Shown: positions 6,802-41,457 of the stretch, one piece after another | Layout of the letters: every line of letters starts with the position of its first letter | Numbering within the stretch: position 1 is the stretch's first letter | Origin: Methanocaldococcus indicus | GTDB taxonomy: Archaea; AGJL01; Methanococci; Methanococcales; Methanocaldococcaceae | DNA: 64,000 nucleotides | NCBI RefSeq assembly: GCF_049554935.1 | Contig: NZ_CP186926.1 | Span: 1,248,001-1,312,000, forward strand | Reading direction: 5' to 3' | The notes under the pieces: model-generated | What the model saw: the letters and a program-made list of their open reading frames with translations, nothing else | The model's database searches: none | Told to the model about the DNA's origin: nothing | Made by a program: the position numbers and the translations under genes

Positions 6802-7445
6802 AAGTTAAAGATTTAATGGATAAAAATTTTGTTAAGATTTATGAGGATTATAGAATTATTGATGCAATAGAAAAACTAAAAAAGAAAAAAAGATTTTCTG
6901 CACCAATATTAAATAAAGAAGATAAATTAATTGGGTGGATAACTACTTTAGAATTGTTGGGATTAAAAGAAAAAGAATTTAATGAAAATATAACTAAAAT
7001 TATGCTTCCTAAGGAAGATGTTATTTATGTTTATGAAGATGATGAAGCAAGAGATGTAGTTTTAAAGTTTGTTAAATATAAAGTTGTTAGTATTCCTGTA
7101 TTGTCAAGAGATGGTAGAGTTGTAGGAATGGTTAGAAATTGTGATATTGTTAAGACATTAGCTAAGCTTTATGAGATTCCTGTCTATAAAATTTTTAAAG
7201 AGCTCCATAACTATCTTAAAGATGTTAGTTGGGAAGAATTAATGGAAGCAGCTGCAATAGTAACAAAGAAAACAACTGGGAAAGATATAACTCCAAAAGA
7301 ATATGAGGAAATAATTAAAAAAACAACATTTGGAAAAGCTATATGGGAATGTGGAGGTTTAGAGAAGTTCTTTGTTGGATTAGTTGAGATTGGAATGGTT
7401 GCATTAGCAAGAAAATTGGCAAAAGCCAGAGGGAAAAAAGCATGA
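6798..7445 (+). CDS. CBS domain protein
   Basis: MKVKDLM..., paired CBS motifs (IPVLSRDGRVVGMV). Confidence 0.85.
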   Translation: MKVKDLMDKNFVKIYEDYRIIDAIEKLKKKKRFSAPILNKEDKLIGWITTLELLGLKEKEFNENITKIMLPKEDVIYVYEDDEARDVVLKFVKYKVVSIPVLSRDGRVVGMVRNCDIVKTLAKLYEIPVYKIFKELHNYLKDVSWEELMEAAAIVTKKTTGKDITPKEYEEIIKKTTFGKAIWECGGLEKFFVGLVEIGMVALARKLAKARGKKA

Positions 7446-7837
7446 ATATTAAAGAGGAATTAGAAAAAATAATTTATAGAAAAGATTATGATTTATGGAA
7501 ATTCTTAGAGAAAGCTTATGAGAAAAATATAAAGTTGGATTTTGGTCATTTTATCCTTTTAAATATTTTAATTGGAATAAATGAATTATATTCTAAATTA
7601 ATAGAAAAGTATGGAAAAGACAAAGCCAAAGAGATTTTAGAAAATTCAGATATTTTTGTAAAAAATACTGACTTTATTTCAGGAGAATTTTTAAAGAGTT
7701 ATATAAATAGAAAGAGTAGAGTGGCTGTTCATAATAGAATTAGTGATTTAAAAAAATTAGGTTTTGTTATAGAGAGTAAAACTGGCCCTTATGGAGGCTA
7801 TAAGTTAATAGACACTCCAGAATGGTTTAAAAATTAA
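7442..7837 (+). CDS. Hypothetical protein with C-terminal winged HTH
   Basis: SRVAVHNRISDLKKLGFVIESKTGPYGGYKL, BirA/HTH_11-like. Confidence 0.65.
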   Translation: MNIKEELEKIIYRKDYDLWKFLEKAYEKNIKLDFGHFILLNILIGINELYSKLIEKYGKDKAKEILENSDIFVKNTDFISGEFLKSYINRKSRVAVHNRISDLKKLGFVIESKTGPYGGYKLIDTPEWFKN

Positions 7838-7847
7838 AGGTGGGATT

Positions 7848-8645
7848 TTGGACATTTTAATAGTTAATGATGATGGAATATATTCTCCTTCATTAGTTTC
7901 TCTTTACAAAGCTTTAAAAGAAAAATTTAAAAATGCAAATATAACAATAGTAGCTCCAACAAATCAGCAGAGTGGTATTGGGAGGGCTATAAGTTTATTT
8001 GAGCCATTAAGAATGACTAAGGTAAAGTTAGATAAAGATATCTATGGTTATGCTGTTTCAGGAACTCCAACAGATTGTGTTATCTTAGGAATATATCAAA
8101 TCTTAAAGAAAGTTCCTGATTTGGTTATATCTGGAATAAACATAGGTGAAAATTTAGGAACTGAAATTATGACCTCTGGAACATTAGGAGCAGCTTTTGA
8201 AGCAGCACATCATGGAGCTAAGGCATTAGCTTCTTCATTACAAATGACTACTGATGACTTTAAATTTAGTGAGTTATCTATTCCAATAGATTTTACAATT
8301 CCTGCTAAAATAACAGCTGAGATTGCTGAAAAATATTTAAAATATGATTTACCTTGTGATGTCTTAAATTTAAATATTCCTGAAAAAGCTAATTTAAATA
8401 CACCAGTTGAAATTACAAGATTAGCTAAAAAAATGTACTCTACACATGTAGAAGAGAGAAAAGACCCAAGAGGTAGGCCATACTATTGGATAGATGGATA
8501 TCCAATTTTTGAAGAAGAGGAAGATACTGATGTATATGTTCTAAGAAGAAAAGGACATATATCCATAACCCCACTAACATTAGATACAACAATAAAAAAT
8601 ATAGATGAATTTAGAAAAAAATATAAAGATATTTTAAAAATTTAA
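7848..8645 (+). CDS. surE: 5'/3'-nucleotidase SurE
   Basis: ILIVNDDG, GTPTDCV, SGINIGENLG, SGTLGAA. Confidence 0.96.
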   Translation: MDILIVNDDGIYSPSLVSLYKALKEKFKNANITIVAPTNQQSGIGRAISLFEPLRMTKVKLDKDIYGYAVSGTPTDCVILGIYQILKKVPDLVISGINIGENLGTEIMTSGTLGAAFEAAHHGAKALASSLQMTTDDFKFSELSIPIDFTIPAKITAEIAEKYLKYDLPCDVLNLNIPEKANLNTPVEITRLAKKMYSTHVEERKDPRGRPYYWIDGYPIFEEEEDTDVYVLRRKGHISITPLTLDTTIKNIDEFRKKYKDILKI

Positions 8646-8661
8646 ATTTTTGTGGAATGTT

Positions 8662-9792
8662 ATGCTAAAAACTGAAAATTTATCAGTTGGTTATGGAAAT
8701 TATGTAGTTATAAAAGATATAAATTTAGAAATTAATAAAGGAGAAATATTATGTATAATTGGGCCTAATGGAGCAGGAAAATCAACATTATTAAAGACAA
8801 TTGCATCTTACTTAAAACCATTAAGTGGAGTTGTATATTTAAATGGAAAGATTGTTCATAATTTAAAACCAAAAGATTTAGCCAAAGAAATGGCTGTAGT
8901 TTTGACTGAAAGAGTAAATCCTGGAAATTTAACAGGATTTGATATTATAGCCATTGGAAGATATCCATATACTGATATATTTGGACGATTATCAAAAAGA
9001 GATAAAGAAATAATATATGAAAGCGCCAAATTAGTAAATGCTACTCATTTGTTAGAAAAAAATTTCTTTGAAATGAGTGATGGAGAAAAACAAAAAATTA
9101 TGATTGCAAGAGCTTTAGCTCAAGAGCCTAAAATTTTAATCTTAGATGAACCAACTACTTTTTTAGATGCTAATCATAAGATAGAGATAACTCTGTTGTT
9201 AAGAAAATTAGCAACTGAAAAAAAATTAGCAATAATTGTAACACTTCATGATATTGAGCTGGCTTTAAGGATTGCTGATAAGATGGTGCTAATTAAAGAC
9301 AATAAAATTATGGCTTATGGTTATCCTGAAAATATTATGAAAAGAGAAACTGTAAATAAACTTTATGATTTGAAAAGAGCAAATTATTCAGAGATTATTG
9401 GATATTTTGAATTAAAATCAAACCCAAAAAAAGATTTAAAAATTTTTGTTATTTGTGGAGGGGGTAGTGGAGCCAATGTTTTGAGATATTTAGTAAAAAA
9501 TGGATATAATGTAGTAGTTGGAGTTTTACATAAAAATGATGCTGATTATTTTATAGCTGAAACAATGAACTTAAAAATCATTGAAGAAGATGCATATAAT
9601 CCAATTACTGATGAAAATTTTGATAAAGCTGTAAATGAAATAAAAACATGTGATATAGTAGTTTGCACTAATTTTCCAATAGGTGAAATAAATAAAAAAA
9701 ATTTAGAGCTTATTGAAATAAGTAAAAAATTAGGGAAAAAAATTATTTTTTATGATGGAGATATTTCAGTATTTAAAAATGTTCTAAAATAA
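8662..9792 (+). CDS. Iron-chelate/cobalamin ABC transporter ATP-binding subunit
   Basis: GPNGAGKS, MSDGEKQK, LDEPT; ATG at 8662 preferred. Confidence 0.9.
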   Translation: MLKTENLSVGYGNYVVIKDINLEINKGEILCIIGPNGAGKSTLLKTIASYLKPLSGVVYLNGKIVHNLKPKDLAKEMAVVLTERVNPGNLTGFDIIAIGRYPYTDIFGRLSKRDKEIIYESAKLVNATHLLEKNFFEMSDGEKQKIMIARALAQEPKILILDEPTTFLDANHKIEITLLLRKLATEKKLAIIVTLHDIELALRIADKMVLIKDNKIMAYGYPENIMKRETVNKLYDLKRANYSEIIGYFELKSNPKKDLKIFVICGGGSGANVLRYLVKNGYNVVVGVLHKNDADYFIAETMNLKIIEEDAYNPITDENFDKAVNEIKTCDIVVCTNFPIGEINKKNLELIEISKKLGKKIIFYDGDISVFKNVLK

Positions 9793-9822
9793 TAATTATT
9801 TATAGTAATTTTTGGTGTATTT

Positions 9823-10878
9823 ATGAAATTCAAAAGATACATAGTATTGCTAATAATTCTAAATATTGTGCTGGTTATACTTTCAATTTATAGTATATTA
9901 TTAGGTACTATTCCTATAAAAAGTGGAGAATTATTTAACTATCTATTAAAAGGTACTACTGGAAACATTATTAAAGATAAAATAATAGGTATATTAAGAT
10001 TACCAAGAACTATTGGAGCAATAACTGCTGGAATGGCTATTGCATTAGCTGGTGTTTTAATGCAAGGATATTTTAGAAATCCATTAGCAGACCCTTATTT
10101 AATGGGAGTTGCCAGTGGAGCATCATTAGGAACTGTTCTATATATATTTACCAGCACACTTTTTAAATTTGGAATTCCACACAATATATATGGTTTTATC
10201 ATTTCAGCATATATTGGTTCTATAATAACAATGTATATTGTAATAAATATTGCAAAGATTGTTAAACAACTCTCAACATTATTAATTTGTGGATTAATGA
10301 TTGGAGCAGTAGTTTCAGGGCTTACTACAATTGTTATATATTTGAATAGCTATTTTAGTGGAGAGAATCATAATTTATCAAGCTATTTAGTATGGGAAAT
10401 GGGTTCAGTAAGTAATTTAACATGGGATATGATAATATTAATGGCTATAATAATTTTTCCAGTTTCTGTAATAACCTATATTTTCTTATCAAAAAAATTA
10501 GATGCCTATTTATTAGGAGAATACTATGCATTAAGTGTTGGTATTGATACAAAATATTTAAGAAAATGGCTAATTATTCTATCTTGTATTTTAACTGCAA
10601 CAGTTGTTGCTTTTACAGGACCTATTGCATTTATTGGAGTAATATGTCCTATAATTGCAAGATTAATTTGTGGAACTTCAAAACATGTCTATGTAATTCC
10701 AATAGCTATGCTTTTAGGAGCAATATTTTTAGTTTTTGCAGATATATTAACAAGACCTGGAGTTTTAATTCCATTATCATCAAATCCATTACCCTTACTT
10801 TGTCCATTGTCAATTGTTGGAGCTCCAATTGCTATTTTTATATATCTAAAAACAAGAAAAGGGACTATAAATGAATAG
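9823..10878 (+). CDS. FecCD/BtuC-family ABC permease
   Basis: [28 protein letters not shown]. Confidence 0.92.
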
Positions 10879-11929
10879 AATTAAAACTATTCTAATTTTG
10901 TTGATATTTTCACTAATATTGCCTATTTTTGCATTATATTATAGTGGAAATACTGGATATATCTCCTTCAATGATATTGTTAATTTTATATTAAAAGGAA
11001 CTACAGGTAATGAGTTTAAAGATTTTATAATAAAGGATATTAGATTACCACCAATAATTGGGGCTATTCTCATTGGACTAACATTATCTACTGCTGGTTT
11101 AATGTTACAAATATTATTTAGAAATTTGTTAGTGTCTCCATATACAACTGGCATATCTTCTGGAGTTTTAATGGTTGTTGCAATAGTTATATTTATAGAT
11201 TCTTTATCTCATATACTCAAACTAATTTTTGGAAATAATTTTATTTTAGTTGCTGGATGGTGTGGTGGAGTATTCTCAATGATTTTATTAATTATTATTG
11301 CTTTAAGAGTTAGAAGCACAAATGATATTATAATTGTTTCCTTACTACTCAGTTATTTATTTTTAGGAGTAAGGTCATATCTTATTGCCAATGCTGAGGA
11401 GTTAAAAGTTCATGAATACTGGGAATTTTCAATTGGGTCATTGTCTAAAATAACATTAAATGATATAGTTCCAATGGTCATTTGTACAGTTATATTTATT
11501 GTTGGAGTTATATTTCTAATAAAATCTTTAAATGCATTATTATTTGGAGAAAATTATGCTAAAAGTTTTGGATTGGATATAAAAAAGACTAGAATTCTAA
11601 TATTATTTTTTGCATCTTTTATAACAGGTTCAATAATTCCATATGTGGGCTTAATTCCCTTTGTTGGACTAATTGCTCCATACTTAGCAAGGCCTTTAAT
11701 AAAAACTTCAGATAATAGATATTTAGTGCCAACAACAATGCTTTTAGGAGTTATATTAATGATTGTATGTTACCTTATCTCGTTAAAATATTATGTGCTA
11801 TTTTCTTATATTTTTGGAATAAAAAAATATGGCTCTCCTTTACCAATTGCATCTGTTTTAGATATATTAGGTGGATTGTTAGTTGTGTATTTGGTTTATA
11901 AAGGTGAAAAGAAAATAATTATTTCTTAA
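10871..11929 (+). CDS. FecCD/BtuC-family ABC permease (second)
   Basis: [32 protein letters not shown]. Confidence 0.9.
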
Positions 11930-28225: not shown

Positions 28226-28335
28226 GCCGAGGTGGCTTAGCTGGTTATAGCGCCCGGCTCATACGGATTTCCAGCGCTAAGCTGGGCTCCTGGGAAACCG
28301 GGAGGTCGGGGGTTCGAATCCCCCCCTCGGCACCA
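28226..28335 (+). tRNA. tRNA-Met(CAT), elongator type, with 33-nt intron (28264-28296) at 37/38; CCA encoded
   Basis: GCCGAGG/CCTCGGC acceptor stem, CCCGG/CCGGG anticodon stem, GGTTCGAATCC T-arm, canonical bulge-helix-bulge (CUCA/UGGG helix, UAC and AAA bulges). Confidence 0.95.
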
Positions 28336-32908: not shown

Positions 32909-34385
32909 TGATGTTATTGGATATGTATTTGGTGAGACAAGAGTTGATGAACTATCTTTCTTAGCAAAAAAACCTCCAAAAGTAGGAGATTATGTTATTA
33001 TAAATTATAATGACAACAAAATTTTAGGAATGGTTGAGAGCACAATACTGGGAAGTAGAGCTTTGGATGGAGTATCTGATGTAGAGTACTTAGAAAAAAT
33101 AAAAGATTTTGTAAATGACACATACTATATAAAAGGAAAAATAAAAGTTCTTGGAGATATTGAAAATTTAAAATTACCAAGAATTCCTCCAGAGCCAGGA
33201 ACCCCTATATACTTAGCTGATAAAGAAACATTAAAGAGAGTTTTTGGTAATGGTCATATAAAAATTGGCCATTTAATAACAAGGGAAGATATTGAGGTTA
33301 AATTAGATGTCAATAAATTATGTTCAAGACATTTGGCTATATTAGCTATGACTGGAATGGGAAAGTCAAATACTGTCTCAATACTATTAAAAGAACTTTC
33401 AAAATTAAGAGCTACAATTTTAGTTTTTGACATGCATGGAGAATATGTAAATATAAAGTGTAATTCTCAAAAAATTCCAATAAATATAATTCATCCAAAA
33501 ATTAATGTTTATGAAATTGATGATGAAAGATTTTGTGACTTAGCTGGAATAGATAGGCAAGCAACTAAACAAAGACCTTATGTGCAAAAAGCTATCCATG
33601 AAGTTAAAAATAATAAAAAACAAAGTGATTTTGCAAATGTTGAAGAGTATTTAGATGAAATAATAAGTGTTTTAGAGAGATATTTAGATGAAAATGAAAA
33701 GGATAAGAGTAGTATTCAAACGGCTATATTCAGAATTGAGCATATGAAACACTTTAAGAAGAAAATACTTACAATAAACTATAATCCTGTTAAAGATATT
33801 AAAGAGCATCATGTTAATATCTTACCATTAGAATCTTTGGATGAGTATGAGGTGGATGTTGTTGTATCTTATCTATCTAAATCTATATTGGATAGTAGAA
33901 AAGAGTTAATTATTGAAAATAGGGAACTTGCAAAGCCAATATTTTTAATATTTGAAGAAGCTCATTTAATAGTTCCAAAGAATAGAGATACAGAAGCAAA
34001 AAGATATTTGGGAAGGATAGCAAGAGAAGGTAGAAAATTTGGAGTTGGATTATGTTTAGTTAGCCAAAGACCAAAAGGATTAGATGCTGATGTTCTTTCC
34101 CAATGCTCCAATTTAATAATCTCTAAGTTAATAGAACCATCTGACCAAAAACATGTCCAAGCAGCTTCAGAAGCTTTAAGTGATGATTTAATGAAACAAT
34201 TAACAAGTTTAAATATTGGAGAAGCTATTATTTTAGGGCCATGTGTTAAAGTCCCAGCTTTGGTAAAGATTGATGAATTTGATGGAGAAAGGGGAGGAGA
34301 AGATTTAGATTTAGTTAAATTATGGAGTAGAGAAGAGGAAAAAAAGGATTTTGATGATAATATTTTTGGTGATGATGACTTTTAA
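32898..34385 (+). CDS. herA: HerA-family ATPase/helicase (HAS barrel)
   Basis: [36 protein letters not shown]; TTG 32898 after GGTGA. Confidence 0.88.
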
Positions 34386-35479
34386 TCATTTCTTAGGGCT
34401 TTTATTGGTTCTACTTTTGTAGCTTTATAAGCAGGATATAGAGAGGATAATAAAGATGTTAAAACTCCAAAGATGATTCCTATAATAATATATAATATTG
34501 AGGATAATGGTAAAGAAACTTTTAATAAATAAACTGAGACAAAATAACTTATTATTAAGCTGATAATAACACCAACAACAGAGCCAATAAACCCTAAAAT
34601 ACCTGCTTCTAATAAAAATAATATTAAAATATCTAACTTTGATGCTCCTATACTTCTCATAATTCCTATTTCTTTTGTTCTCTCAATTACACTCATTAAC
34701 ATAACATTTCCTATCCCTATTCCAGCAACTAATAAAGAAATAGCTCCAATGGCAATAATAAAATAAGATATCTTAGATATTGCCTCTTTAATATTTTCAA
34801 CTATATTTTTTAATGATATAATTATAGCTTTCTTTTTTCTTTTATTTAAAATACTATCTATCTCTTTTTCAACTTCTTCCATCTTATTTATATCTTTAAC
34901 ATATACAACAATTCTTGTATATCCTTTTGGATTATACAATCTTTTGTATGTCTTTTCTGTTAATACTATTGAATTTTGAGGAACAATAAAAGAACTGTTG
35001 AATATTCCAGATACTCTAAATTTTATATCTCTAATTTTTATAATATCATCTTTTTTAATATCCCCTATTTCTGATAAATAGTTATCAACAGCTAAAGTTG
35101 TGTCTGAAATTCTTACATTCAAATTTGTATATTTTATATCATTCTTATTTATTCCAAATACTCTAACAGATAAATATCTATTCTTCCCAACTAAATAGAT
35201 ATTGTCATATCTTTCATACATTGGAATTACAACTCCATTTATACCTCTAAGTTTTAGTAAATCAGATTTATCAAAATATTCATAGCCAGATACAAAATTA
35301 GGAAATATTATTATGTAGTTTGCTACATTACCCAAGTTGTTATTAACAGCTGTTTTTACACTTTCTCCTAAAATTCCTAATGTTGTTATAGCAGCTACTC
35401 CAATAACTATACCTAACAAAGCTAAAATACTTCTTAATAAATGTCTTTTTAAATTTCTCTTAGCTAATTCTATATACAT
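34382..35479 (-). CDS. MacB/FtsX-type ABC exporter permease
   Basis: [45 protein letters not shown]. Confidence 0.92.
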
Positions 35480-35483
35480 AAAC

Positions 35484-36173
35484 TCACTTTAAATATTCTT
35501 CTTTTTCAATTTCTCCATCTTTTAAATAAATTATCCTATCTCCAAATTTGGCAACATTTATGTCATGAGTCACAACAACAATAGTTTTTCCACTTTCATT
35601 TAATTTTTTTAATAATTTCATTATTTTTTCTCCTGTTTTGCTATCTAATGCCCCAGTTGGTTCATCTGCCAAGATAATTGGTGGATTGTTTGCTAATGCC
35701 CTTGCTATTGCTACTCTTTGCTGTTGCCCTCCACTTAGTTGATTTGGTCTATGGTTAGCAAATCTCTCATCTAACTCAGCCATTTTTAAACATTCTAATG
35801 CTCTCTTTTTTCTTTCTTCTTTACTCATTGAATTTCTATATTTAAATATTAAAGGAAGCTCAACATTTTCCAATGCAGTTAATACAGGAATTAAATTGAA
35901 CTGTTGAAAGACAAAACCAATTTTATCCCTCCTAATTTTTGTTAATTCATCATCATCCAATTTATTTATCAGTATATTATCAATATAAACCTCTCCTTCA
36001 GTTGGTTTGTCCAAACATCCAATTATATTTAACATTGTTGATTTCCCACTACCAGAAGGACCCATAATTGAGACAAATTCCCCTTTTTTTATTTTTAGAT
36101 TTACATTTTTTAGAGCATAAATAGTTTCTTCTCCCATTTTATAAGTTTTTGTTACATTTTTGAGTTCTATCAT
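35484..36173 (-). CDS. LolD/MacB-type ABC ATPase (MJ0796-like)
   Basis: [34 protein letters not shown]. Confidence 0.95.
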
Positions 36174-36174
36174 T

Positions 36175-37671
36175 TTATAACATCCTTCTAAATCCTTTGT
36201 AAATTAAAAATAAAACTCCTAATAGAAAGAGAATACCAAAACCAATTAATAGGTAATTATTGTTTTCTTTATTGTTTTGATTGGTAGTATTCAAATTCTG
36301 TATTTTTATTGTTCTATAAATTGTTATTAAGTTGTTGTTTTCATCTCTATAAGTTATTTTAATTGGAATTTCACTTACATTTTCATCAATTTGGCAGTGA
36401 AGTTCAAAACTTGCATAGTCATCAGGATTTAAAGTTCCTACAAAGTAGCTCTCATAAGGTCTAAGAGGTTTAATATCTTTATTTTCTTCAATTGATAAAA
36501 GAACAGATTTAGCTACTCCACTACCTATGTTGTCTATATCCCCTGTTATTTTGATATAACCATTATTCTCTACATCTAACTGACTAAATACTAAATCTGC
36601 CTTTCCAACAACATTAACTAAGAATGTTTTTTTAATATCTAACTTATCAGCATATATCTCTAAGTTTAGTGGATATATTCCAACTTTATCAAATTTAACT
36701 AAGAAATTGACTTTTTTGGTAGTCCCTTTCTTAATGTAAATATATTTTTCATTATTACCAATAGAATTATTTAGTTTTAAAATAAATAATGCATCTTTGT
36801 AGTTATTTTTAATTAAAAAAGAGATATTTTCCAATTTACCAACAGTTAAACTTGAATTTTCTAAATTAACAATAATTGCTGATTGAGGATAGATATAGAA
36901 GTTTATTGTTCCCTCCTCTGTCTCAGATTTTAGGTTTTTATATGTTAAAGTTTCAGATTTAGAGTCATAAGAGATTGTCTCAGACTTTTGAGTTAGCTCT
37001 AATAGATTGTATGGATTTGTATATGAAATTTTATATTTTAATATACCTACTCCATTAGTTTTTGCATATACATCTAAATATATACATTTTGAGAATCCAG
37101 GGGTTAGAGAGGATATGTAAAAAGAACTTTGTCCTAAGATATCTAAGTTATCTCCATAAAAATCTATTTTTATATCATTTGCTGTTCCTGTTCCTGAATT
37201 TGTTACTAATAAAGTAATTTTGTTATTTCCTACTTTCAATGTGTTTGTTAATGGCTCTATGGTTAAGTATGATTTTCCTCTTACTGGAAGAGTAAAAACT
37301 CTATTTTCTTTATATACCTTATCTTTATAGTTATATTCACAATAAACAACTACTTTATAATCATAGCTAAAAGCTGATGGCTTAATTTTTATAATAAAGT
37401 GTCCTACTCCAACATCTCCTGGAAACAACTTTCCTATCCATGCTCTATCTTTAATAAACTCAATATTTTCCTTTGTTATGTTATTAAAAGGTTTCAAATA
37501 TAGAATTGTATTATTTATTTCTTTATCAGTTTCTATAACAACATACACATCATATGTTTTTCCTGGCTCTAAATATTCTGCTTTATAGTCAAAGCTCTTA
37601 AATGTTATATAAGAATAGGAAAAGCTCAACATTAAAAACATTAAAATTATTAAGATAACTTTTCTTATCAT
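36175..37671 (-). CDS. COG1361 S-layer-domain protein
   Basis: Signal peptide, NSGTGTA and NIGSGVAKS repeats, YFVGTLNPDDY, C-terminal TM anchor. Confidence 0.85.
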   Translation of the reverse strand: MIRKVILIILMFLMLSFSYSYITFKSFDYKAEYLEPGKTYDVYVVIETDKEINNTILYLKPFNNITKENIEFIKDRAWIGKLFPGDVGVGHFIIKIKPSAFSYDYKVVVYCEYNYKDKVYKENRVFTLPVRGKSYLTIEPLTNTLKVGNNKITLLVTNSGTGTANDIKIDFYGDNLDILGQSSFYISSLTPGFSKCIYLDVYAKTNGVGILKYKISYTNPYNLLELTQKSETISYDSKSETLTYKNLKSETEEGTINFYIYPQSAIIVNLENSSLTVGKLENISFLIKNNYKDALFILKLNNSIGNNEKYIYIKKGTTKKVNFLVKFDKVGIYPLNLEIYADKLDIKKTFLVNVVGKADLVFSQLDVENNGYIKITGDIDNIGSGVAKSVLLSIEENKDIKPLRPYESYFVGTLNPDDYASFELHCQIDENVSEIPIKITYRDENNNLITIYRTIKIQNLNTTNQNNKENNNYLLIGFGILFLLGVLFLIYKGFRRML

Positions 37672-37674
37672 GGT

Positions 37675-38334
37675 TTAACCAAATATTAGTTTTATTATGT
37701 TATATAGTTGATACAAACCAAATATGATAGTTGGTATCAATGCAGTTATAAAAGCTTTTTTGATATCTAAGTTTCTTGCATATTTTATTGCAAATGTCCA
37801 AATATAAAGGTTCCATAAAGTTACACCAATTCCCACAAATAAGTTAAAATAAACTAAACTTTTAGGAATTATACTTTTTACAACTTTTTGGACAATTATT
37901 GGATTTTGTAGTTGTTCTATAGATAATGGTTGAACATGGATATGTGAGAGATAATAGTAAGCAATAGGAATTGTTATTAATGCTCCAATTATATTTGGGA
38001 GGAATCCATAACCAACAAAAGATAAAGTTTTTTTAAATTTTCCTTTTCCTTTAAATGCAATTGAAATAAGATGCATAATTCCAGCTATAATTATCCAGGA
38101 AATAAGTCCTCCAATAAATGTTGATATTAAACTAATAACTTTTATGAAAGACATAATCTGTTGATACTGAGGAGGGAAGATTTTAAACATTACTGAAGTT
38201 GATATATAGGTAGAGATTGATATTAGTATAGAAAAAACTAAAACAATCAAAAATGGCTCTTTTAGAGAAATTTCTTTTTGAGAAAGTTTTTTAAAGAATG
38301 TATCCGGATTTATTAAAACTTCAATTATATTCAT
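37675..38334 (-). CDS. Yip1-domain membrane protein
   Basis: VLINPDTFF, GKGKFKKTLSFVGYGFLP, five TM segments. Confidence 0.85.
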   Translation of the reverse strand: MNIIEVLINPDTFFKKLSQKEISLKEPFLIVLVFSILISISTYISTSVMFKIFPPQYQQIMSFIKVISLISTFIGGLISWIIIAGIMHLISIAFKGKGKFKKTLSFVGYGFLPNIIGALITIPIAYYYLSHIHVQPLSIEQLQNPIIVQKVVKSIIPKSLVYFNLFVGIGVTLWNLYIWTFAIKYARNLDIKKAFITALIPTIIFGLYQLYNIIKLIFG

Positions 38335-38389
38335 TAATATCCCTCATTATATTTTTTAATTAGTTTTATTGTTTATTGTATTTAAATCT

Positions 38390-38926
38390 TTATGTTAGTA
38401 TATAATTTGCTATTTTAGGAGTAATATAAACTTCTACAAAAGCAGCTATAACTATTAGAATTATTGAAATTAAAGATAATTTTAGGAACTCTTTTATATC
38501 CTCATTAGTTATTGGTTTTTCTTTTTTATCTAATAAATAAAGAGTTACTTCATAAGGAATTTTAAAGCCAGCTATTGCTGATATTAATATAGCTGGAATT
38601 TCGAATATACCGTGCGGTAGAGTAGTGACTAAAACAAAAAACCAGTTTTCTAATAAAGCTAATGCCTTAAATTGAATCGCTAATGCAAATCCATTAACTA
38701 CAAGATTATATATAATAGGAACTAAAAATACTCCTCCCAATATGTTAGTAAATACTACCTTTAGATTATTAAACAAGATTCCAAAAAACGAACACTTTGG
38801 TAGAAAATTAGCAGTAGATAAATCTATTCCACTAAATATATTTAACGGTGTAAAAAGCCCATATATAAATCCAAGTATAAAAATAATTATTGGCAAAATT
38901 TTATATATTTCTATATTCACTTTCAT
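38390..38926 (-). CDS. SpoIIM (DUF95) family membrane protein
   Basis: ILFNNLKV, LPHGIFEIPA, AAFVEVYITP. Confidence 0.9.
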   Translation of the reverse strand: MKVNIEIYKILPIIIFILGFIYGLFTPLNIFSGIDLSTANFLPKCSFFGILFNNLKVVFTNILGGVFLVPIIYNLVVNGFALAIQFKALALLENWFFVLVTTLPHGIFEIPAILISAIAGFKIPYEVTLYLLDKKEKPITNEDIKEFLKLSLISIILIVIAAFVEVYITPKIANYILT

Positions 38927-39393
38927 TATTTTATTCCATGTGATTGATTCCAGTTTTTAAGAATATTTACTCCAAAGGCAAAAACAAAGCCTCCAGCATA
39001 ACTTAATATTAATATAATAAACAAACATTCTAATTGCTGAGAAGTTAAAGGATAAATAATAAGATATTTTATTAATATTGCAGAAAGTAAAATAACTAAT
39101 GGAAATGAAAATAAAAATATCTTAAAAAATTTTTCAAGGTTCTTTTTTTCAAATATGACATACTTTTTAATATTTTTACTTAATAGAATTTTTGACAAAT
39201 AAAATCCAATTAGCATTCCTATTGCAACTAAAACCACTGAAACATTAAAAATATTTTTTAGTAGGGGCATACCATAATTTAAATAAAAGTTAGAAAGTAA
39301 TATTGGAACAATCCAGAAAAATATACCTTCAATCATTAAAAGTAATCCAACAACATTTGGATTATTTATCCATGAGTGTGCAATATTTCTCAT
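38926..39393 (-). CDS. 4-TM membrane protein, putative immunity protein
   Basis: ATG 39393 after GGTGA; four hydrophobic segments; position in SpoIIM locus. Confidence 0.7.
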   Translation of the reverse strand: MRNIAHSWINNPNVVGLLLMIEGIFFWIVPILLSNFYLNYGMPLLKNIFNVSVVLVAIGMLIGFYLSKILLSKNIKKYVIFEKKNLEKFFKIFLFSFPLVILLSAILIKYLIIYPLTSQQLECLFIILILSYAGGFVFAFGVNILKNWNQSHGIK

Positions 39394-39413
39394 AAATATC
39401 ACCAAAAAAAAAA

Positions 39414-39497
39414 TTAAAAATTAAAATAAATTATATTTATATTAACTAAGACCAAAGCTCCGAAAATCTTACATACACCATTCTTCAAAAATTTCAT
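39414..39497 (-). pseudogene. Signal-peptide stump of a probable secreted precursor (MKFLKNGVCKIFGALVLV then AT-rich run-out)
   Basis: GGGTGG RBS, basic n-region plus h-region, then abrupt switch to A/T-only sequence and stop after 27 codons. Confidence 0.5.
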
Positions 39498-39501
39498 ATT
39501 G

Positions 39502-39562
39502 CCACCCTTTATTGGTGGTTGTGCGGTAGGCTCAGCTCCTACATCGAAGCGTCATCGCCAAC
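39502..39562 (-). promoter_or_regulatory. GC-rich structured 5' leader RNA with C/D-like kink-turn hairpin and RBS-sequestering hairpin
   Basis: GGC-GAU-GA-C-GCUUC-loop-GGAGC-UGA-GCC (39559-39529); CCACC/GGUGG stem (39518-39502) covering the RBS. Confidence 0.6.
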
Positions 39563-39744
39563 TATTTTTTAATTTTTTATATTACTTTACTTATCTACTA
39601 CTTCGATTTCCAAATTTTTCATTAAAATAATAATACAAAACCCCTGTATATATTATGATTTTAATCAAATAGTAAAGTATAAAACGTTTCCGATTAGAAT
39701 TTTTAAATAACTAAAAAATAATAAAATGGTTTATAAATGTAAAG

Positions 39745-40058
39745 TTATGTTAGTATATAATTTGCTATTTTAGAAGTAACATAAACTTCTACAAAAGCAG
39801 CTATAACTATTAGAATATAAGAAATTTTAAAGCCAGCTATTGCTGATATTAATATAGCCGGAATTTCGAATATACCGTGCGGAAGGATTAAAGCTAAAAT
39901 TAGTTTTAACGGTTCATTTGTTAAGAATGTAGAACCGATTAAAACTCCAACATTGAAACCGTTAAAAATTAAATTTATAAAAGTAGATAAACCGAAGGTA
40001 ATAGAACCTGCTAACATTAAAAAGATAACTTTTAGGTTATTTGTCAGAATTAAAGATA
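39745..40058 (-). pseudogene. Second SpoIIM-family copy, 5'-truncated, with in-frame internal deletion of ~30 codons
   Basis: SLILTNNLKVIFLMLAG...LPHGIFEIPAILISAIAGFKISYILIVIAAFVEVY; 3' segments nearly identical to 38390-38617. Confidence 0.8.
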
Positions 40059-40155
40059 AAGGTGCTGGACTGAATTTTGATGAAGATAAAAAATAATTTT
40101 TAGTTTTTATGTCATTAATACAACTATTGATTATTTTATAGATAACTGCAAAATT

Positions 40156-40707
40156 ATGATAAATTCAGATATAGAAATAGAATATCGTGGGAATATAATA
40201 AGAAAAAGATACTATGACACAATGGTAAAAATTGAAGGATATATAAAGGATACTAATTTGGATGAATTTATAGATATAATTAATAATCTCTGTTATTCTT
40301 ACCTACTGTTACCATGTGATAATTTTCAAAAAGAATGTGCATCAAGAGATGAACTTTTAAAGAAGTTTAATATAAAAGAACCTGATGATGATTTTATAAA
40401 AAGTATAATTAAAGAGACATTTGAATTTAATGACTTAGCAACAGAAAATCTTAACAAATCACATATTTACAATAATATTGAAGAAATTTTATCTATTTTA
40501 AAACATAATGATGTAATAGAGGATTATAACATTGGTATTGATGTACAAGATAAGTTAATAATTGTAGATATAAAAGTAATATCCAAAAAAGTTTTTGGAA
40601 TATTTAAAAAAGATGTCAATATTGACTCAATTAAAAAGATACTATTAAAAAATCTAAAAAATATGTATCCTAATCTCAATATAGTAATTTCAATAGCTGT
40701 TGATTAA
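40156..40707 (+). CDS. Hypothetical protein, probably 5'-truncated (DUF2226-like SRDELLKKFNIKEPD motif)
   Basis: 183-aa ORF without RBS; frame open upstream to 40090, next to an A6 run. Confidence 0.55.
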   Translation: MINSDIEIEYRGNIIRKRYYDTMVKIEGYIKDTNLDEFIDIINNLCYSYLLLPCDNFQKECASRDELLKKFNIKEPDDDFIKSIIKETFEFNDLATENLNKSHIYNNIEEILSILKHNDVIEDYNIGIDVQDKLIIVDIKVISKKVFGIFKKDVNIDSIKKILLKNLKNMYPNLNIVISIAVD

Positions 40708-41457
40708 TATCATAGTTCCAATAACAAATAAAATTACAAATAAAATTATATTTACTTGTTTTTCATTTAAAATATTATATAGTCTATATCCCAATTTAGA
40801 TGAAAACAACATAGGAATCATAATTAATATAGTTATTGGCAAAGAGACATAACCAATATTTCCACATACATTATCTACTTTTGCAGTTAAATATGACAAA
40901 ACTGAACCAAAAGAAGTTAATGGGACAGCACCAATAGATATTCTAACTGCTTTTTTATTATCATAAATTAAGCTTAATAGTGGTGTGAATATTAAACCTC
41001 CTCCAATACCAAATAATCCTGAACAAATTCCTGCTATAATTCCAACAAAAATGCTAAAATTATTTTTAATTTTTGGTTTAGGGATTATTGTATAAAAACT
41101 TAAAAATAATAAAAAAAATCCTAATAGTATTTTTAACAAATAGGATGGCAAATAATTAACTACAAAAAATCCTGTTAAATAAGAAAATATTAAGCTAATA
41201 AGTCCTAATTTAATGGATTCCACAACATAAATATCTTTTTTATGTCTATAACATCCAATTAATGAATTTAGAAATACAACTAATGAAGAAGTTCCTACTG
41301 CAAATTTTACAGCATCTTCAATCTGATAAAAAGAAAATATAAAGGTTAATATTGGAGTTATTAAAAATCCACCACCTAATCCTAATAAACTACCTAATAC
41401 TCCAATAAATATTCCTGAAAAAATTAATATAAGTATAAACAGGTAAATTTCATACAT
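40690..41457 (-). CDS. TauE/SafE sulfite exporter family
   Basis: LLGLGGG and LFGIGGG repeats, AVGTSS, multi-TM. Confidence 0.9.
   Translation of the reverse strand: MYEIYLFILILIFSGIFIGVLGSLLGLGGGFLITPILTFIFSFYQIEDAVKFAVGTSSLVVFLNSLIGCYRHKKDIYVVESIKLGLISLIFSYLTGFFVVNYLPSYLLKILLGFFLLFLSFYTIIPKPKIKNNFSIFVGIIAGICSGLFGIGGGLIFTPLLSLIYDNKKAVRISIGAVPLTSFGSVLSYLTAKVDNVCGNIGYVSLPITILIMIPMLFSSKLGYRLYNILNEKQVNIILFVILFVIGTMILINSY

Follow-up and report, generated by a model that had tools for sequence, protein, structure and literature searches.

The 64,000-nt stretch of the Methanocaldococcus indicus genome analysed here (the window, whose full length all coordinates refer to) carries on its minus strand, as do all features of the element described below, a GC-rich island between a promoter and a short open reading frame (ORF). 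Comparison with related genomes indicates that this island is a real and conserved kink-turn RNA hairpin, accompanied by a stem that covers the ribosome-binding site (RBS), in the leaders of genes for small secreted peptides. A first-pass annotation of the window had described a TATA box, an 11-codon upstream ORF (uORF), the island, a hairpin resembling a box C/D kink-turn (Fold A), an 8-bp complement inside the uORF and a CCACC/GGUGG stem, and all of these are present where that annotation placed them. It had also proposed an alternative fold of the same bases (Fold B) and a toggle, set by L7Ae binding and/or ribosome passage over the uORF, that would control translation of a secreted precursor. 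The observation is real and this first interpretation was partly right: on the comparative evidence, the leader is not a uORF-driven or two-fold switch. We lean, with modest conviction, towards a leader in which the kink-turn would act as a handle for L7Ae and, together with the RBS-covering hairpin, would damp translation or stabilise the 5' part of the mRNA.

Searched at the DNA level, most of the 17 genomes of the family proved to carry the element, frequently in several copies spaced 1.3-2.7 kb apart. A covariance model built from an alignment of 20 leaders matches 17 of the 40 genomes of the order Methanococcales, in three genera: 12 of 17 genomes in the window's own genus (g1), the window's genome included, both genomes of g5 and 3 of 13 in g3, with no match among the seven genomes of g2 or in the single genome of g4. 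The module is frequently present in 2-5 copies per locus. Given the alignment alone, RNAalifold returned the canonical (C) stem and the noncanonical (NC) stem of the kink-turn as well as a hairpin that engages the Shine-Dalgarno (SD) sequence. In the 20 leaders, 93.7% of the cells were paired, a level reached by none of 500 shuffles. A wider set of 47 model matches, corresponding to 45 distinct rows, gave 92.3% paired cells compared with 78.4% in shuffles, and again none of 500 shuffles reached the observed values; changes on both sides were seen in 13 of 16 pairs. When the partners were slid by 1-3 columns as a control, 20-46% of the cells were paired.

An alignment-free direct parse across homologous loci yielded 53 hairpins, 44 of which are distinct. 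The GA...GA core and the 3-nt bulge are invariant in all of them, the bulge reading GAU or, in second copies, UGU. The NC stem occurs with 13 different 5' strands (e.g. GCCUC, GCUCC, GCCC, GGAC, GAACAU, GAAUAG, and GAACCU), each with its complement opposite, and the C stem alternates between UUGGC/GCCAA and GGUCGGC/GCCGACC. Three further distinct hairpins have a mismatch at the first pair, and their NC stem was left unscored by the parser. Counted in Watson-Crick pairs over the 44 distinct hairpins, the C stem spans 5-7 and the NC stem 4-8 pairs. Two tandem kink-turn hairpins are found in leaders of six genomes (G003, G007, G016, G025, G026, and G032). The layout is that of a simple (standard) kink-turn, namely a C helix, a 3-nt bulge, tandem G.A/A.G pairs, presumed from the sequence to be sheared, and an NC helix. 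The C/D-like hairpin of the first-pass annotation is, in these relatives, conserved and covarying.

The stem that had been said to hide the RBS likewise holds up as a conserved, covarying SD hairpin. In the minimum-energy fold at 37 °C, 34 of 36 distinct homologous linkers engage four or more SD bases in pairs; one of the two misses is a parsing artefact, and the other is a copy without an anti-SD sequence. Compensating variants of this stem include UCACC/GGUGA, UCACU/AGUGA, and CUCC paired with the GGAG of the GGAGGUGA site. The linker that joins the kink-turn to the anti-SD varies in length and sequence.

The window leader (Table 1) is intact except for one U.U mismatch in its C stem (GUUGGC/GCCUAC). 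The bulge is GAU, followed by the G.A/A.G pairs, a C.U combination at 3b.3n, the NC stem GCUUC/GGAGC, and the loop GAUGUA, so that the core hairpin reads GGC-GAU-GA-C-GCUUC-GAUGUA-GGAGC-U-GA-GCC. The SD hairpin ends 4 nt ahead of the ATG at 39497. Upstream, the promoter noted in the first-pass annotation is conserved in relatives, where sequence comparison shows a block of AAATCRT and ATATATATA kept in front of the homologous leaders. The island (39500-39559) has a GC content of 56.7% compared with about 12-30% on both flanks. The kink-turn core pattern occurs once in the window, with a match in none of 100 shuffles, and once in the whole 1.44-Mb genome. The folding energies are unremarkable, with z = -1.52 for an 86-nt piece (16 of 200 shuffles equally good) and z = -0.69 for a 141-nt piece. 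The minimum-energy fold of the latter is the alternative put forward in the first-pass annotation, comprising the uORF pairing and GUAGG/CCUAC, and a single sequence therefore cannot decide between the folds.

Table 1. Features of the leader and its surroundings in the window
Feature	Position	Strand	Basis and remarks
Archaeal promoter, A-rich stretch resembling a transcription factor B recognition element (BRE) and TATA box TAATATATA (39655-39647)	39647..39664	-	Sequence; conserved in relatives
11-codon uORF of the first-pass annotation	39587..39622	-	ATG at 39622, 24 nt past the TATA box
8-bp competitor AUCGAAGU, complementary to the 5' NC strand and loop of the kink-turn	39600..39607	-	Complementarity; part of the 141-nt minimum-energy fold
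Conserved A-rich tract	39563..39578	-	Homology; 39578 is the predicted major 5' end of a stable RNA
Box-C/D-type kink-turn hairpin with full C stem	39526..39562	-	Sequence and relatives; core at 39559-39529
Hairpin of anti-SD CCACC (39518-39514) and SD GGUGG (39506-39502), 7-nt loop	39502..39518	-	Minimum-energy folds of the 86- and 141-nt pieces
Apparent remnant precursor ORF, 27 codons, stop at 39416-39414	39414..39497	-	First part of the shared signal peptide only
T10 run, likely archaeal terminator of the apparent remnant unit (role by inference)	39404..39413	-	Sequence; directly after the ORF
Downstream cassette and export genes	34382..39405	-	ORFs and Pfam; same gene order in G004
90-amino acid SpoIIM fragment just upstream of the promoter	39745..40017	-	PF01944, E = 5.3e-16, profile positions 60-124 only

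Fold B behaved as expected by chance. In the 20 leaders it paired 66.7% of the cells, compared with a shuffled mean of 66.6% (264 of 500 shuffles as high), and its covariation score was 0.051 versus 0.054 in shuffles. The CCUAC that it uses is the 3' strand of the C stem, and L076, a locus from another genus, keeps GCCUACC without a GUAGG partner in the hairpin. The covariation among homologous leaders that the first-pass annotation had looked to for support is found in both kink-turn stems and in the SD hairpin but not in Fold B.

The uORF is probably not conserved as a coding unit. Among 29 distinct leaders, its would-be start is ATG in 20 and a different codon in nine (ACG in 8, GTG in 1), and the frame runs for anything from 3 to 27 codons. 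In 28 of the 29, this conserved ATG/ACG/GTG position lies 21-26 nt past the end of the TATA box, where transcription should start. The conserved bases at the uORF start look like an initiator or early-transcribed motif rather than coding sequence, and the first ~17 nt of the window's uORF are probably this start-of-transcript motif. A uORF-dependent attenuator would need a conserved, translatable uORF that alters the downstream fold, and the family shows none.

The 8-bp pairing between uORF and kink-turn stands for the window but not for the family. In the window the duplex has an energy of -10.7 kcal/mol, which 2 of 200 shuffles equalled, and in G004 the pairing amounts to -11.9 kcal/mol. A pairing of -9 kcal/mol or stronger is present in 5 of 29 distinct leaders (the window, L035, L037, L034, and L041), and the shortest leaders are without any competitor segment. 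Over the 29 leaders the mean energy of pairing with the leader's own hairpin is -5.2 kcal/mol, versus -4.6 when the hairpin comes from another class and -4.5 when the upstream segment is shuffled; on these cross-pairing and shuffle controls we rejected the competitor segment as a family feature. In G006, two copies with an identical upstream segment and different hairpins both pair well, suggesting that the apparent covariation of the competitor is mostly that of a purine-rich segment meeting a pyrimidine-rich strand.

Transcripts were available for an intact unit in the relative G004 (locus L037), to which four public RNA runs were mapped. In run X14, 1827 reads fell on the element, all in one direction, and 1826 of them carried adapter, indicating inserts shorter than 101 nt. 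The depth was 0 upstream of 7367, 0.71 at 7367-7397, 81.5 at 7398-7428, 1778 over the kink-turn (7429-7459), 1226 at 7460-7490, 388 at 7491-7521, and 0 beyond 7522. Adapter-joined 5' ends mapped to 7428 (1473 reads), 7429 (203), and 7427 (37). The A tract starts with the base at 7428, which lies 19 nt upstream of GGCGAUGA and downstream of the uORF segment. A minor end at 7397 (19 reads) is the base just after the GTG homologous to the window's ATG, 26 nt past the TATA box. A transcription start near 39622, as the first-pass annotation expected, accordingly has a counterpart in the minor end, 3 nt inside the homologous would-be start codon, but the dominant end is found past the uORF. Another study (X9) supplied a contig for L037:7430-7814, which has the same 5' boundary and runs through the 89-codon ORF to the oligo-T tracts in which the intact unit ends (7786-7815). 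This extent suggests that the precursor gene is a short transcription unit of its own. A T5 run at L037:7517-7521, in codons 2-4 of the precursor ORF and also in homologous ORFs of the MKFL type, coincides with the 3' limit of the short leader reads; premature termination at this run, though possible, was set aside, as it is confounded by read length and the T5 is missing in other ORF types.

We take 7397 as the likely primary start and 7428 as a processing site, although the reads cannot tell primary from processed ends. The latter assignment follows from the lack of anything TATA-like at the right distance upstream in G004, the window, and L038; a second promoter for the major 5' end was rejected on the same ground, the bases 22-33 nt upstream not being TATA-like. 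In these three leaders the spacing between the major-end position and the conserved upstream motif ranges from 26 to ~58 nt. Of 39 distinct leaders, 14 have the sequence Y|AAAAAA 19 nt ahead of GGCG, and another 3 have it shifted upstream by one base. By homology, the major RNA 5' end in the window is predicted at the head of the A-rich tract (Table 1), downstream of both the uORF and the competitor. Four other loci (L074, L075, L082, and L083) have a different promoter, whose position predicts a transcription start exactly at the A tract.

In the relatives, the leader always precedes genes for signal-peptide proteins with hypervariable bodies, located in SpoIIM/Yip1/ABC cassettes, which bears out the link to a secreted precursor gene drawn in the first-pass annotation. 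The downstream ORFs share a signal-peptide-like N terminus and then diverge completely; most encode 87-110 amino acids with Gly/Ala-rich hydrophobic bodies, and a few leader-linked cargoes are larger secreted proteins of about 240-390 amino acids with the same signal peptide (241-387 in L035, L074, L075, L081, and L083; genomes G006, G016, G039, and G038). Three tandem cassettes in G003 (L032, ~7300-11700) share 92-100% identity between about -300 and +146, counted from the kink-turn, that is, up to the end of the signal peptide, past which identity drops to 20-50%. This profile suggests that promoter, leader, and signal peptide form a constant module set on a variable cargo. The constant module measures ~450 nt; tandem cassettes also occur in L033, L034, L036, and L077-L079, and the constant head with a variable body resembles polymorphic toxin loci.

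The mechanism that we propose starts from the predicted folding behaviour of the kink-turn. Position -1b is C in 42 of 44 hairpins, and 3b is C or 3n is G in 36 of 44. A -1b C:G pair and 3b = C or 3n = G are features tied to protein-independent folding in the available part of PMC6298567, and by these rules the kink-turn is expected to fold without protein. Such predicted self-folding favours a constitutive handle for L7Ae over a conformational switch. The window's genome has two L7Ae-family genes, and L7Ae is described, in the accessible text of PMC5539422, as binding 5'-untranslated region (UTR) kink-turns in archaeal mRNAs and lowering their translation. The leader would thus be organised as promoter, A-rich tract, kink-turn hairpin (tandem in some relatives), variable linker, anti-SD/SD hairpin, and start codon. 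The kink-turn would be a constitutively folded handle near the 5' end of the mature mRNA, to which L7Ae could bind, marking the 5' part of the message; L7Ae and the weak SD-occluding hairpin would together limit the translation of a peptide that could harm its producer, and a stable RNA from the 5' leader would be left behind.

Several points weigh against this handle reading. The wider alignment was fitted to the model; its weakest rows include two non-members, L084 (a plain hairpin) and L085 (an apparent C/D small RNA (sRNA)); and copies within a genome are kept identical by recombination, so its rows are not independent. Of the 36 linkers, 29 should have lost the SD hairpin at 80 °C and the other 7 should hold it only marginally (-0.1 to -1.2 kcal/mol), according to a nearest-neighbour extrapolation that is rough at such temperatures. 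The organisms appear to be hyperthermophiles, and this predicted melting suggests that the SD hairpin alone is only a weak brake at growth temperature. The kink-turn itself does not overlap the SD and in most copies ends ~30-45 nt before the start codon at variable spacing, so steric blocking by it is not obvious. Finally, leader RNA accumulates in X14 without ORF coverage, which translational damping explains no better than a stabilised fragment, an attenuated transcript, or a separate small RNA would, and since X14 apparently holds short inserts only, its missing ORF reads say nothing about the mRNA.

The same reads raise the possibility, which we think real but clearly the lesser one, that the leader serves as a 5' stabiliser or as the source of a small RNA. 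A kink-turn ribonucleoprotein (RNP) would protect or define the 5' end after processing at the A tract, and the resulting RNA of up to 94 nt might be functional, as an L7Ae sponge or a trans-acting sRNA, or might be a product of decay or early termination. The abundance of RNA from 7428 to at most 7521, its sharp 5' end (1473 of 1827 reads), the end of the last covered bin at the T5 run inside the first codons, and the survival of an intact window leader beside a truncated ORF and a T10 run are all consistent with this, and L7Ae-binding kink-turn RNAs derived from 5' UTRs are known in Pyrococcus abyssi (PMC3124441, as excerpted). The short inserts, however, deprive the missing ORF reads of meaning, other studies yielded contigs that take in the ORF (7430 to 7814), the T5 run is missing from leaders whose ORFs start with MNI.., MKLW.. 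or MKLN.., and an SD and a start codon are fused to the leader in every case. A speculative extension of the handle reading, which we consider a good deal less probable again, is that the leader acts as a checkpoint on the free L7Ae pool, reporting the state of ribosome and small RNP (sRNP) assembly and gating self-toxic, possibly head-to-tail-cyclised bacteriocins. The processed kink-turn RNA might then persist as a stable small RNP and have a separate role, and in a subset of leaders that includes the window's, the competitor might keep the kink-turn unfolded until 5' processing, much as type I toxin mRNAs are activated.

For the toggle of the first-pass annotation, in which leaderless uORF translation and/or L7Ae would choose between Fold A and Fold B with its uORF pairing and so set precursor translation, there remain the 141-nt minimum-energy fold of the window, a pairing that beats shuffles there and is strong in four other leaders, and an ATG at the expected start of transcription. 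Set against these are the chance-level pairing of Fold B, the drifting start and length of the uORF, the leaders too short for a competitor, the major RNA 5' end of G004 downstream of that segment, and the self-stable kink-turn predicted by the folding rules (PMC6298567, in the portion available); the last two argue for a fixed handle. As a family feature the toggle is largely refuted, and we regard it as improbable. More improbable still is that the leader has no RNA function and is conserved merely as a constant 5' arm for cassette recombination. The sharp identity boundary of the G003 cassettes would suit such an arm, but both stems change by compensating substitutions between genomes and genera around a fixed GA/GA core and bulge, which recombination alone does not yield. 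We give least credence to a degenerate or miniature box C/D guide sRNA gene sitting upstream of the ORF. In its favour, a GCGAUGA resembling box C, present in nearly all hairpins, and a CUGA resembling box D sit on a terminal stem, and the model weakly picks up an apparent true C/D sRNA with the same termini in G004 (L085, 24.8 bits). The hairpins, however, lack C'/D' boxes and a guide of 10-12 nt, the space between the boxes being taken up by a stem of 4-8 bp and a loop of 4-7 nt; only 13 of 44 read YUGA at the box D position, all others having CGGA or CAGA, and no Rfam C/D family matches the element. The G004 RNA itself (L085:2362-2443; G004:C1:35361-35442, minus strand) seems to have C, D', C', and D boxes, and its terminal stem and box C, which are as in the leader hairpins, hint at a shared origin.

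The window's own unit looks like a remnant that has lost its cargo and kept the membrane, SpoIIM, Yip1, and exporter genes. Its ORF loses homology to relatives after ~17 codons and stops at codon 27, where relatives encode 87-110 amino acids, and the genome holds a single copy of the element; the remnant reading rests on this truncation, the T10 run, and the single copy. A short RNA still made from the window copy may or may not have a use. Downstream follow a 159-amino acid membrane protein, SpoIIM (PF01944; a full-length ORF of 178 amino acids at 38390-38926), Yip1 (PF04893), a CARDB-like protein of 498 amino acids, an ABC ATPase, and a 365-amino acid ORF. The 90-amino acid fragment upstream of the promoter repeats the C-terminal part of the 178-amino acid SpoIIM and is probably the stump of a lost neighbouring cassette. 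Within genus g1, 11 genomes have both the leader and Yip1 and 4 have neither; completeness is 81% and 85% in the two discordant genomes. Decaying cassettes are seen in several genomes: the Yip1 gene of G004 (C1:717003-717416) is broken by two TAA stops, and one copy in G012 by one TAA.

Loci of this type have been described as cassettes in which arCOG01996, arCOG02054, and small membrane proteins lie close to a SalXY-like ABC transporter, and the archaeal locus has been termed a membrane-associated defence or remodelling system, according to the available parts of PMC4158269 and PMC5898192; those parts mention no RNA and no separate short precursor transcription units. Their context allows the precursors to be read as bacteriocin-like. 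None of 27 precursors matched a bacteriocin Pfam family at E <= 1, and an Atlas feature search placed three cyclic-bacteriocin clusters near the G004 precursor (L037:7511-7777) with scores of 0.77-0.82, which serve as leads only.

A match to a known stand-alone sRNA family, which the first-pass annotation had named as counting against its model, did not turn up: Rfam 15 gave no match on the element at E <= 10 (window 38000-41000; G004 L037:7200-7900), and at gathering scores the whole window returned a tRNA alone. That tRNA (28226-28332, plus strand, 107 nt, 60.4 bits) is longer than a plain tRNA and probably has an intron. Literature searches found no earlier description of the RNA element; the island may have been among the hits of early GC-content screens of M. 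jannaschii, reportedly those of Klein et al. 2002 and Schattner 2002.

Archaea have few known cis-acting RNA elements, and L7Ae-bound leaders have so far been found mainly on C/D RNP genes. Here, a kink-turn leader family supported by covariation and not in Rfam is attached to hypervariable secreted-peptide cassettes in three Methanococcales genera. If L7Ae binds it, a housekeeping RNA-binding protein would be linked to genes of inter-microbial conflict. The element would also offer archaeal genetics a natural, heat-stable, and modular kink-turn leader, and it sharpens the annotation of a "dark matter" locus, in which the precursor genes appear as short transcription units of their own.

The leader shares features with several known systems. 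Leader hairpins that sequester the SD are familiar from RNA thermometers and from the processed leaders of type I toxin mRNAs. As in those, a short stem pairs with the SD, the product is small, hydrophobic, and possibly self-toxic, and 5' processing would remove upstream sequence; unlike those, the present leaders have no known antisense RNA partner, their hairpin is predicted to be marginal at growth temperature, and the kink-turn is without a counterpart there. With regard to the cargo, DUF95/SpoIIM proteins are a hallmark of circular-bacteriocin clusters, according to the titles and abstracts of papers such as PMC8659200 and PMC6131525. The cassettes resemble such clusters in having a SpoIIM-family protein, an ABC exporter, small membrane proteins, and precursors of 87-110 amino acids with a leader and a hydrophobic body of ~55-75 amino acids, and differ from them in that no precursor matches the Pfam families and the feature scores are only those given above; cyclisation of these peptides would be a possibility.

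Among archaeal RNAs, the box C/D motif is similar in its terminal stem and in the box C-like GCGAUGA and box D-like CUGA (or CGGA, CAGA) that form a kink-turn, whereas box C/D sRNAs have the C'/D' boxes and guides that the leader lacks, and the leader is part of an mRNA. The sRkB and sRkC RNAs of Pyrococcus abyssi (PMC3124441, in the excerpts available) are likewise processed small RNAs from GC-rich islands upstream of ORFs in AT-rich hyperthermophile genomes, with kink-turns and with the start region of the downstream gene in a stem. They are unrelated in sequence and fold, belong to another lineage with other downstream genes, and have been shown to bind L7Ae, which is inferred for the present family. 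They are the closest precedent for the small-RNA reading.

The nearest relatives in design are the kink-turns in the 5' UTR of l7ae mRNAs, as the available parts of PMC5539422 and PMC6298567 describe them. In both families the leader of an SD-led gene forms a stem-loop that contains a simple kink-turn, with GAU as its bulge and with tandem G.A pairs, and L7Ae is the expected ligand and lower translation the expected output; in ours, the kink-turn lies in the mRNA 5' UTR between a conserved promoter and the SD and start codon. The l7ae leaders have the SD within or beside the kink-turn, whereas here it sits in a separate hairpin ~30-45 nt downstream. They also need L7Ae in order to fold (-1b:-1n other than C:G, 3b other than C, 3n other than G, and few Watson-Crick pairs), whereas the folding rules predict the opposite for the present kink-turns, whose stems are longer. 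The cargo is a secreted peptide rather than an RNP protein, and tandem kink-turns occur. Kink-turn leaders as such are of a known kind, and the family described here, which is without an Rfam entry, appears to stand apart from the l7ae-type class because it differs in the two properties that define that switch, the position of the SD and the unfolded state without L7Ae.

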